A stretch of DNA of 64,000 bases from an uncultured Bacilli bacterium (GTDB lineage Bacteria; Bacillota_I; Bacilli_A; RF39; UBA660): NCBI GenBank assembly GCA_934183165.1, contig CAKPRZ010000001.1:54820-118819 (forward strand), read 5' to 3'. The position numbers and the translations under genes were made by a program. This document shows positions 25,421 to 49,618 of this stretch, one piece after another (the first letter of the stretch is position 1; every line of letters starts with the position of its first letter). Below the pieces are notes generated by a model. That model saw only the letters and a list, made by a program, of their open reading frames with translations. It searched no databases and was not told where the DNA came from.

Positions 25421-25438
25421 TAATATTTAAGAAAACAA

Positions 25439-25469
25439 AAACAATCTAAATCATAATCTTAGATTGTTT
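25439..25469. terminator. Bidirectional terminator (aaacaatctaa-N9-ttagattgttt) between the PHP gene and the Cys-rich peptide gene.
   Basis: Perfect 11-bp inverted repeat flanked by A- and T-runs. Confidence 0.5.
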
Positions 25470-25504
25470 TTTAGTGGAAAATATTTTGAGTTTACTAAAT
25501 ACTA

Positions 25505-25687
25505 TTATTTACAACATTCACATTTTGATTTGTTATCTTGACAACCGCATGTACAATCATCGTCGCAAGTGCAGTTTCCTTCTTCACATCCACAAGTACA
25601 TTTTACATCTTCACAGGTACATTCCATACCTTCTTGGCATCCGCATGTACAAGTATCCATGCAAGTATTCTTTTCTTCTTCTTTCAT
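25505..25687 (-). CDS. Cys-rich metallothionein-like peptide (60 aa, ~17 Cys) with three tandem (T/K/D)CTCGC(Q/E)(E/D) repeats.
   Basis: MKEEEKNTCMDTCTCGCQEGMECTCEDVKCTCGCEEGNCTCDDDCTCGCQDNKSKCECCK. SD AGGAGGG lies 6 nt upstream of the internal ATG at 25687. It follows the CsoR-like gene by 10 nt. Confidence 0.6.
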   Translation of the reverse strand: MKEEEKNTCMDTCTCGCQEGMECTCEDVKCTCGCEEGNCTCDDDCTCGCQDNKSKCECCK

Positions 25688-25697
25688 TATATCCCTC

Positions 25698-25982
25698 CTA
25701 ATCATTAAATCTTTTAAATAAACTTGTTAATTCATCAATGACTTCTTCATTTTTTATATCATCTGAAATACACCTATAAATATGGTTTTCAAACATAAGA
25801 TTAGCTAAACTCTTTAAAGATTTTTCACAAGCAACTATTTGAATTAATATATCATTACAATATCCATCTTCTTCTATCATTTTTTTAATTCCAGAAAGTT
25901 GCCCACTAATTCTATTAATCCTACTTAATAACTGTCTTTTTTCTTCATCATTTCTTTCAGTTTTTTTACAACCTTCACTCAT
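25698..25982 (-). CDS. csoR: CsoR/RcnR-family metal-sensing transcriptional repressor.
   Basis: RINRISGQLSGIKKMIEEDGYCNDILIQIVACEKSLKSLANLMFENHIYRCIS carries the CsoR signature (R..G..Q...M......C.D.L.Q..A) with Cys and His ligand positions. The start may be 25997 or 25982. Confidence 0.75.
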   Translation of the reverse strand: MSEGCKKTERNDEEKRQLLSRINRISGQLSGIKKMIEEDGYCNDILIQIVACEKSLKSLANLMFENHIYRCISDDIKNEEVIDELTSLFKRFND

Positions 25983-26052
25983 ATTTTCCACCACCAATCC
26001 AATTATATTTTAAAACATATTAAAAAGTAAATGAGGGGGTATATTTATTAAA

Positions 26053-26892
26053 TCATTTTAAATCCAAAGCATTTTTAGGACACTTTCTAATACAATTACA
26101 ACATAATATACATTCAGTACCATTTTTCCTTTTTCTTGAATCAGTTAACATATCAACATTCATTGGACAACTCCTTATACATTTTTTACAATTAATACAT
26201 TTATCATGATTACATTTAATGCGTAAATAAGAAAAATAACTAGCTGGTTTTAGAAAAATAGTTATAGGACAAATATATTTACAAAAAGCCCTATTATCTT
26301 TATAAATATATGCCAAGGCAATTCCTAAAACATAATATACGATATTTCCAATTATAAATGACCAAAACATTATATTATCTAAATTATCTACTTTAAATAT
26401 AAATAGTGAGATAACAAAAGTTAATGATAATAAGAATACTATATATCTAATCCACCCTAACTTTTTTCTATTAGATTTTGGTATTTTATATGGAAGTAAA
26501 TCTAGTATCATTCCAGTCCAACAAGCATACCCACACCATCCTCTACCAAAAAATAAAGGTCCAGCTATTTTAGCTACAAAATAATGTATAGTTGCCGCTT
26601 CAAACACCCCTAAAAATAGATAATACCAAAATCCTTCAATCTGCATATTTTCTCTACATATAACTCCCAAATATATAAGCATATATAATCCAACTGCAAA
26701 TTGAACAAAGCTTCTTGCATATTTTACTTTATGTGATACTAAATAAAGTCCAACTGAAACACATATTCCTATATAGTTAAAATTTAATAAATAGAAAATC
26801 TTTTTAGTTGATATGAATAACGATATTGCAACAACCTCAAATATTAACATCATTATTAAAACAATTTTATTTTCTCTAAACCATTTAAACAT
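26053..26892 (-). CDS. NapH/MauN/CcoG-superfamily membrane polyferredoxin (4 TM, two CX3CP loops, 2x[4Fe-4S] C-terminal domain).
   Basis: FFGRGWCGYACWTG and FCKYICPIT loop motifs. C-terminal CINCKKCIRSCP ... CILCCNCIRKCP ferredoxin motifs. Confidence 0.7.
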   Translation of the reverse strand: MFKWFRENKIVLIMMLIFEVVAISLFISTKKIFYLLNFNYIGICVSVGLYLVSHKVKYARSFVQFAVGLYMLIYLGVICRENMQIEGFWYYLFLGVFEAATIHYFVAKIAGPLFFGRGWCGYACWTGMILDLLPYKIPKSNRKKLGWIRYIVFLLSLTFVISLFIFKVDNLDNIMFWSFIIGNIVYYVLGIALAYIYKDNRAFCKYICPITIFLKPASYFSYLRIKCNHDKCINCKKCIRSCPMNVDMLTDSRKRKNGTECILCCNCIRKCPKNALDLK

Positions 26893-26929
26893 TTATTATT
26901 TACCTCATATAACTAATATTTTTATAATG

Positions 26930-27124
26930 TTATTTATTATTTTTTGACATATAAGTAACTGTTAGAATTATACCAATAAAGTTACATCCTATCGATAATC
27001 CTACTAACAACCCACTACTAAAATCACTAAAAGAGCTTGAACTATTACCATTAAAATACATATATGCCAAATATAACAAATTTCCTAATATAATTAATGA
27101 TATTCCTGTTTTTAATTTTTTCAT
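26930..27124 (-). CDS. Small two-TM membrane protein (64 aa).
   Basis: Two hydrophobic helices. Sits upstream, on the minus strand, of the ferredoxin gene. Confidence 0.4.
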   Translation of the reverse strand: MKKLKTGISLIILGNLLYLAYMYFNGNSSSSFSDFSSGLLVGLSIGCNFIGIILTVTYMSKNNK

Positions 27125-49609: not shown

Positions 49610-49618
49610 ATTATCCCC

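Follow-up and report, generated by a model that had tools for sequence, protein, structure and literature searches.

A CsoR-type regulator and a metallothionein-like peptide gene as a putative copper sequestration cassette in an uncultured gut bacterium

Metallothioneins are rare in bacteria, and the reviews consulted name only SmtA/BmtA and the mycobacterial protein MymT, alongside the Csp storage proteins (PMC11672702, PMC7558416). RicR, a paralogue of the copper sensor CsoR, represses the copper metallothionein gene mymT of Mycobacterium tuberculosis and is autoregulated (PMC3944814; RicR-mymT also in PMC11672702). The Zn/Cd protein SmtA has His ligands and folds like a zinc finger, and its sensor belongs to the ArsR family (PMC7558416). 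Here, we describe a locus from an uncultured low-GC gut bacterium in which the gene for a CsoR-family regulator (csoR) is followed by the gene for a small Cys-rich peptide. The locus lies in a 64,000-nt stretch of contig CAKPRZ010000001.1 with a GC content of 25.8% (hereafter, the window), where three minus-strand open reading frames (ORFs) encode a membrane polyferredoxin, CsoR, and the peptide. We consider it probable that csoR and the peptide gene constitute an autoregulated, copper-inducible sequestration cassette that couples the regulator to a metallothionein-like peptide. This pair is genuine and conserved and would be an apparently undescribed variant of CsoR-controlled copper sequestration, with a sensor and a sink. 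We found no description of a CsoR-metallothionein pair in Clostridia or Firmicutes in a literature survey whose coverage was incomplete, so that an earlier description elsewhere is possible.

The closest functional analogue would be RicR-MymT, in that both systems have a CsoR-family copper sensor that is proposed to control a small, Cys-rich, copper-buffering peptide. However, mymT lies apart from ricR in a multilocus regulon with palindromic operators, whereas the window peptide gene is predicted to be cotranscribed 10 nt behind its regulator and the box in front of the pair has a single C tract. The window peptide is also longer than MymT (17 Cys residues versus up to six Cu1+ ions bound by MymT), contains CTCGC repeats, and has no detected sequence relationship to it; the hosts belong to different phyla, that of the window being a low-GC, Firmicute-like gut bacterium. 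In evolutionary terms, as judged from sequence, the cassette is closest to the ordinary Firmicute csoR-copZ-copA (or copZA) operon, whose regulator is of the same family and has the same ligands. Unlike that operon, the window has a metallothionein-like peptide in the copZ/copA slot, and the type 2 palindrome is missing. SmtB-SmtA and BmtA are looser analogues, with a gene for a small Cys-rich metal-buffering protein beside that for a metal-sensing repressor; in contrast to SmtA/BmtA (Pfam Metallothio_Pro), the window peptide has no significant Pfam metallothionein match and no His.

An earlier reading, made from the letters alone (the sequence-only reading), had described the three genes as one copper module of reductase, sensor, and sink that departs from the canonical copZA arrangement. 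All three genes are real and were correctly described, and the departure from copZA is borne out by the peptide in the copZ/copA slot. The three genes do not form one module, and the interpretation is thus partly supported. The trio, with the exact polyferredoxin sequence, was found on 15 contigs from independent metagenome assemblies (four shown) and is therefore not an assembly artifact. Of the two spacers that had been given, the 10 nt between csoR and the peptide gene stands, whereas the 55 nt between the polyferredoxin gene and csoR should be 70 nt. The smaller figure arose because a TTG at 25997 had been taken mechanically as the start of csoR; homologues and gene calls begin at the ATG at 25982.

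The csoR-peptide gene pair

The order csoR and then peptide gene, with a gap of 10 to 12 nt, was found in the window and in loci L009, L011/L012, L014 to L017, L182/L183, and L102 to L110, with different flanking genes each time. Besides the window, at least 13 loci carry this bicistron, and their flanks are unrelated. In a metagenome scan, all of the CsoR relatives checked that were at least 76% identical had a Cys-rich peptide of 38 to 61 residues as their next gene product. The relatives at 40 to 62% identity were followed by a CopZ-like heavy-metal-associated (HMA) protein or a CopA-like ATPase, with the order csoR-copZ-copA in L115 and L117. The 23 peptide loci outside the window species (131 kb) contained no polyferredoxin, HMA protein, or P-type ATPase, and 16 of them also carried csoR. 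In the lineage of L014 and L017, fragments of an IS110-family transposase and a resolvase lie some 250 nt past the peptide gene. These fragments, together with the variable flanks, suggest that the cassette moves between genomes.

The CsoR/RcnR-family identity read from the letters was confirmed by a match to PF02583 over profile positions 1 to 78 of 78 (E value, 9.4e-26; score, 90.5 bits; cutoff, 22.8), and the top NCBIfam match was the copper sensor RicR. Residues C42, H67, and C71 align with the Cu1+ ligands of the solved CsoRs of Geobacillus (4M1P), Streptomyces lividans (4ADZ), and M. tuberculosis (2HH7), and the set corresponds to Cys36/His61/Cys65 in M. tuberculosis numbering. When 30 subclade members were aligned, these three ligands were invariant, as were Y41, E84, R21, and R24, and E84 aligns with the Glu at +20 from the ligand His in 4M1P. 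A second-shell Tyr, which precedes the first Cys, and a second-shell Glu have a role in copper CsoRs, as is known from work on M. tuberculosis and B. subtilis. R21 and R24 make up an RxxR DNA-binding motif; RLXR is the CsoR-type DNA-binding signature, and RcnR carries RASK (PMC3902906). These residues support the assignment of the regulator as a copper-type CsoR, which would sense Cu1+. The Cys-His-Cys ligands exclude an FrmR-like grouping, a possibility that the sequence-only reading had raised against itself, and the protein is not RcnR or CstR like either.

Two peculiarities of individual csoR genes were seen. The window protein has a Cys at position 52 (VACEK; codon at 25829-25831), where all 29 of the other aligned members have Ala, Thr, or Ile. 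In L011 (4706-4990) and L012, which hold the same gene from two independent samples, codon 10 of csoR is an in-frame TGA, as opposed to AGA in the window. The TGA may be a nonsense codon with reinitiation at a downstream start, or it may be recoded; the other genes of that contig read normally in the standard code.

The peptide was found to have the 60 residues that had been counted before and exactly 17 Cys residues (28%), where about 17 had been given, with no Phe, Trp, Tyr, or His. Its Cys residues are arranged as CxCxC and CxC motifs and include three CTCGC units. The gene starts at the ATG at 25687 behind a GAGGG ribosome-binding site, and the spacer that separates it from the csoR stop is GAGGGATATA; the ribosome-binding site of the peptide genes is conserved, at a conserved distance. 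Relatives of the peptide numbered 15 in a word-indexed database, and a full profile search of 1.84 billion cluster representatives gave 24 at an E value of 1e-3 or less. In the family alignment, the Cys columns and the CTCGCQEG and CTCGCEEG units were invariant, and whole repeats were gained or lost. Among three homologous peptide genes of equal length, the ratio of nonsynonymous to synonymous differences (pN/pS) was 0.06 to 0.12, which indicates purifying selection in frame; only these three genes were used, and an ungapped comparison of the window with L011 was discarded because an indel makes it invalid. The Cys-rich ORF is thus a true gene, as the sequence-only reading had it, with a selected coding frame tied to csoR.

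Known families did not account for the peptide. No Pfam family gave a significant match; among the metallothionein families, the best was Metallothio_5, with an E value of 1.4 when the window peptide was the query and of 0.32 (11.6 bits; cutoff, 25) with a homologue. NCBIfam gave no match, and no match in the PDB was better than an E value of 0.42. The AlphaFold2 model had no fold, with a predicted local distance difference test score (pLDDT) of 48; such a prediction is compatible with an apo-metallothionein and proves nothing. By the operational definition (small, Cys rich, with CxC/CxxC motifs and without aromatic residues), the sequence of the peptide is metallothionein like. We predict from its composition that it binds metal. 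A scan of viral contigs gave no relative of the peptide, and the prophage-like neighbors in L010 are therefore not general.

The Cys-rich sequence also varies in length and occurs in other proteins. Across L102 to L110, the peptide has about 38 to 61 residues (8 to 17 Cys residues) through the gain or loss of whole CxCGC repeats, and some of the short forms may be truncated alleles. A CxCGC(Q/K)EGKEC module is fused N terminally to GrpE-domain proteins P0305, P0316, and P0308 (Pfam GrpE E values, 1.8e-30, 8.6e-17, and 1.3e-4, the last under the Pfam cutoff). P0312 and P0318 are longer proteins with several copies of the module after an apparent signal peptide (e.g., MKKLLTGILIIGAFLSTTSSTFASC) and may be secreted or lipoprotein versions of it. 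On the tentative broader proposal given below, the presence of the module on GrpE and on apparently secreted proteins would point to a more general metal-buffering building block.

Promoter, conserved box, and proposed copper response

We aligned the promoters of 12 independent csoR-peptide loci. The sequence ATATACCCCC was invariant; two variable bases came next, and then ATTTAC, which was also invariant and leads into the -35 hexamer. Likewise, both promoter elements were conserved in position, the -10 element lying 17 to 18 nt past the -35 element, and the sequences upstream of the box were unrelated among the loci. The sequence-only reading had likened this block, seen as G5, to a CsoR half-site; it proved to be conserved and close to the promoter, and it matches canonical CsoR operators in their left half. 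Specifically, the CsoR consensus of S. lividans is ATATACCCCTNAGGGGTATAT, and its left half is the same as the window box (PMC3902906). Within the 64-kb window, the box was the sole good match. Other C5/G5 runs in the window were rejected as CsoR boxes, as they resemble Shine-Dalgarno sequences; this was checked at 49615 and was inferred from the flanks for the rest. At the other end of the cassette, a terminator hairpin with a 14-bp stem was predicted (-12.8 kcal/mol; z = -2.4 versus shuffles), which a consensus terminator scan had missed because the stem has few G-C pairs.

CsoR sites have been divided into type 1, with one G/C tract of 3 to 8 bp between AT-rich inverted repeats, and type 2, with two tracts, and tandem sites that combine type 1 and type 2 have been recorded (PMC3902906). 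The window box is not the type 2 pseudopalindrome, which is TAC-N9-GTA with two G/C tracts; it has a single C5 tract and reads TAC-N9-TAC. Distant csoR-copA and csoR-copZ loci have canonical palindromes (ATACCC-N4-5-GGGTAT), such as ATACCCCCCAGGGGTAT, over the -10 element. In L113 to L117 and L111, in front of csoR-copZ-copA, a single-tract box (TATACCCCCTTATTTAC) at the -35 element is combined with a perfect ATACC-N6-GGTAT palindrome over the -10 element. By its sequence, this double element looks like a natural tandem type 1 plus type 2 site, and it may be an evolutionary intermediate for the window box.

The cassette of about 600 bp is self-contained, with a C5-box promoter, csoR, the peptide gene, and a terminator. 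We propose that it works as follows. At low copper levels, apo-CsoR would sit on the ATATACCCCC box abutting the -35 element and repress its own operon. Rising cytoplasmic Cu1+ would bind Cys42, His67, and Cys71, and CsoR would leave the DNA. Both genes would then be transcribed, with the peptide translated from its own ribosome-binding site, and the 17 thiolates could sequester several Cu1+ ions in thiolate clusters. As free Cu1+ falls, newly made apo-CsoR would repress the operon again.

If this proposal is true, the peptide represents a third, sequence-unrelated family of bacterial metallothioneins and extends the strategy of sequestering rather than exporting copper. Its members are found in uncultured gut bacteria, hard-wired to a copper-type CsoR in the usual copZ slot, and gut bacteria meet copper from both diet and host. 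A broader and much more tentative proposal, which we hold to be rather doubtful, is that the CxCGC(Q/E)EG-repeat peptides are a new modular family of Cu1+ metallothioneins that has displaced CopZ/CopA behind CsoR, that inducible sequestration and not efflux is the main form of copper handling in some small-genome gut anaerobes, and that CsoR acts there on a single-tract operator. The single-tract box would offer a natural test case for how type 1 and type 2 operators are each read by CsoR, and the tiny, self-contained cassette could be of use as a copper-inducible part or chelator. The features of the locus are listed in Table 1.

Table 1. Positions of the cassette elements and neighboring genes in the window
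Feature	Position	Strand	Basis or remarks
csoR, 94-aa CsoR-family repressor	25698..25982	-	ATG 25982-25980, TAG stop 25700-25698; PF02583
Metallothionein-like 60-aa peptide gene	25505..25687	-	17 Cys; three CTCGC(Q/E)(E/D)(G/N) repeats; linked to csoR by its ribosome-binding site
Conserved box ATATACCCCCTCATTTAC, putative CsoR operator, extending into the -35 element	26027..26044	-	Invariant in 12 loci; left-half match to S. lividans consensus
Sigma-70-type promoter of the csoR-peptide operon, TTTACT-18 nt-TATAAT	26002..26031	-	Promoter scan, 10/12 matches
csoR ribosome-binding site GGTGGTGG	25988..25995	-	GGTGGTG invariant in 12 loci, 5-8 nt before ATG
AT-rich hairpin plus U tract, predicted cassette terminator shared with convergent PHP gene	25437..25471	-	RNA fold
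NapH/YccM-like membrane polyferredoxin, 279 aa, outside the conserved cassette	26053..26892	-	Fer4_5 plus 2x[4Fe-4S]
64-aa small membrane protein	26930..27124	-	Recurrent polyferredoxin neighbor in close relatives

Metal specificity and alternative explanations

Several points weigh against a copper-responsive cassette controlled through the box. All characterized CsoR operators are of type 2, and S. lividans CsoR does not bind a type 2 half-site (PMC3902906); the box, with its single C tract, is type 1 like. Given these precedents, a role of the box as the CsoR operator is a well-motivated inference rather than a demonstration, and part of the invariance of the box could merely reflect the -35 element. 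Furthermore, a scan gave no terminator in the 70-nt spacer between the polyferredoxin gene and csoR, and read-through cotranscription with the polyferredoxin gene is therefore possible in this one species. Solo peptide genes that lack both csoR and the C5 box (L010 and L018 to L021) mean that copper control is not universal for the peptide family. Neither copA nor copZ is present within the 64-kb window. Additionally, the Cys-His-Cys set of the window CsoR is also found in the nickel sensor InrS (5FMN), and this fingerprint is therefore necessary, not sufficient, for a copper CsoR. An N-terminal Cys or Cys-Cys of the subclade CsoRs could act as a fourth ligand.

The last two points bear on the alternative that survives best, which is that the cassette senses and buffers another thiophilic metal, such as Ni2+, Zn2+, Cd2+, or Ag1+, by means of an InrS-like repressor that uses the N-terminal Cys as a fourth ligand. 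InrS was among the significant PDB matches of CsoR (E value, 9.5e-11), and the N terminus reads MSxCCKK in homologues, with the Cys-Cys nearly conserved in the subclade and Gly-Cys in the window. Zn and Cd, moreover, are also bound by all-Cys metallothioneins. However, the best PDB matches of CsoR were copper CsoRs, in line with RicR as the best NCBIfam match; the CsoR relatives that control copZ/copA also carry N-terminal Cys motifs; and the second-shell Tyr and Glu that are typical of copper CsoRs are invariant. On this balance, a different metal is an unlikely explanation, and Cu1+ is the metal we favor for the csoR-peptide pair.

A second alternative retains copper but enlarges the module to all three genes, with the polyferredoxin as a CcoG-like cupric reductase that supplies the Cu1+ that CsoR senses and the peptide captures. 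Cu2+ reduction by CcoG is proven, and the protein has shorter homologues, YccM among them (PMC7558416). The polyferredoxin has the CX3C(P) pairs and the two [4Fe-4S] motifs of the NapH/YccM/CcoG superfamily, its gene lies on the same strand next to csoR with no terminator between them, and the arrangement is stable across the contigs of the window species. Against this, we examined the contexts within 4 kb of 80 polyferredoxin loci from a scan of one genome per species (80 species; 63 to 87% identity). None of the 80 had a CsoR-family ORF, a peptide homologue, or any other credible Cys-rich peptide, and none had an HMA-motif chaperone or P1B-type ATPase. No Pfam family recurred among the immediate neighbors, the commonest being a GNAT acetyltransferase (8 of 73), no nap-like neighbors were seen, and neither synteny with the window nor an "empty site" was found around the polyferredoxin gene even in the closest species. 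Conversely, the 23 other peptide loci lack a polyferredoxin, polyferredoxins that are 80 to 87% identical to that of the window adjoin PadR or Fur-rubrerythrin genes, and the protein lacks the Fer4_18 and FixG_C domains. Moreover, a conserved promoter and box that belong to the cassette itself lie downstream of the polyferredoxin gene, and no CsoR box lies upstream of that gene.

We therefore regard the polyferredoxin gene as standing alone, without a detectable connection to copper genes, since its neighbors at the 80 loci are random and include no copper genes. From these contexts, it would be a coincidental neighbor of the cassette that encodes a redox membrane protein outside it. The three-gene module put forward in the sequence-only reading does not hold up and is, in our judgment, very improbable, and the adjacency of a NapH/CcoG-like gene is no evidence for a cupric reductase.

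In CstR, a persulfide sensor, the His equivalent to His67 is missing. It is highly improbable that the Cys-rich ORF is no metal sink at all but a modified-peptide precursor (SCIFF or ranthipeptide like), a buffer of redox state or persulfide, or an ORF that arose by chance in repeats, because, although the peptide lacks a family annotation and a predicted fold, is of low complexity, and has out-of-frame ORFs on the opposite strand, its frame is under strong purifying selection with indels of whole repeats, its ribosome-binding site is conserved in sequence and distance, no radical-SAM or other maturase recurs beside it at the peptide loci examined, its sole recurrent partner is a copper-type CsoR, and that CsoR keeps His67.

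The polyferredoxin and its surroundings

The loop and cluster motifs that had been noted in the polyferredoxin are present as GWCGYACW, FCKYICP, and two CxxCxxCxxxCP motifs (CINCKKCIRSCP and CILCCNCIRKCP). Pfam matches were Fer4_5 (E value, 4.5e-10) and 4Fe-4S dicluster domains. Of the four transmembrane segments assigned before, all four were found as strong segments in a hydropathy scan, but this count is a minimum, with perhaps two more. The NapH/MauN/CcoG architecture likewise holds as a broad class, in that the protein, like NapH, MauN, YccM, and CcoG, is polytopic, carries a pair of CX3C(P) motifs (Fer4_5), and has a 2x[4Fe-4S] ferredoxin domain at its C terminus, but it does not extend to the NapH cutoff or to the domains of CcoG. 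The best NCBIfam match was NapH/MauN (TIGR02163), which scored 57.8 bits (cutoff, 213) and aligned over residues 113 to 278 only, and no CcoG model was among the 25 best NCBIfam matches. Unlike CcoG, the protein has no Fer4_18 and no Ig-like FixG_C domain among its Pfam matches at an E value of 0.01 or less, and its gene has no nap, mau, or cco context. A PDB sequence search returned generic 2x[4Fe-4S] domains only, and the AlphaFold model was poor (pLDDT, 51; predicted template modeling score, 0.40; 19-sequence alignment).

Homologues of the polyferredoxin number in the thousands. The 80 loci came from gut and rumen Clostridia, "Bacilli/Mollicutes" metagenome-assembled genomes (MAGs), Coriobacteriia, and others, and this family of gut and rumen anaerobes is tightly conserved, at 63 to 87% identity across orders. 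The closest relatives are labeled uncultured Bacilli, Clostridia, Mollicutes, or Tenericutes MAGs. In L005 to L008 (L005, 5460-6840), a PadR-family gene overlaps the start of an 80%-identical polyferredoxin gene by 17 nt, which hints at PadR control of the polyferredoxin in that lineage. PadR was rejected as a general partner, being confined to this one lineage and not seen in the other 80 loci. In the closest relative (L184 to L188; L184, 5282-6197), an 87%-identical polyferredoxin is followed by a small membrane protein, a Fur-family regulator, and rubrerythrin, and the context there is oxidative stress rather than copper. A two-helix membrane protein of 64 to 67 residues is encoded upstream of the polyferredoxin gene in the window and directly downstream of it in L022, L030, and L184. 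The window and L184 versions are 80% identical, and this protein may serve the polyferredoxin as a small subunit.

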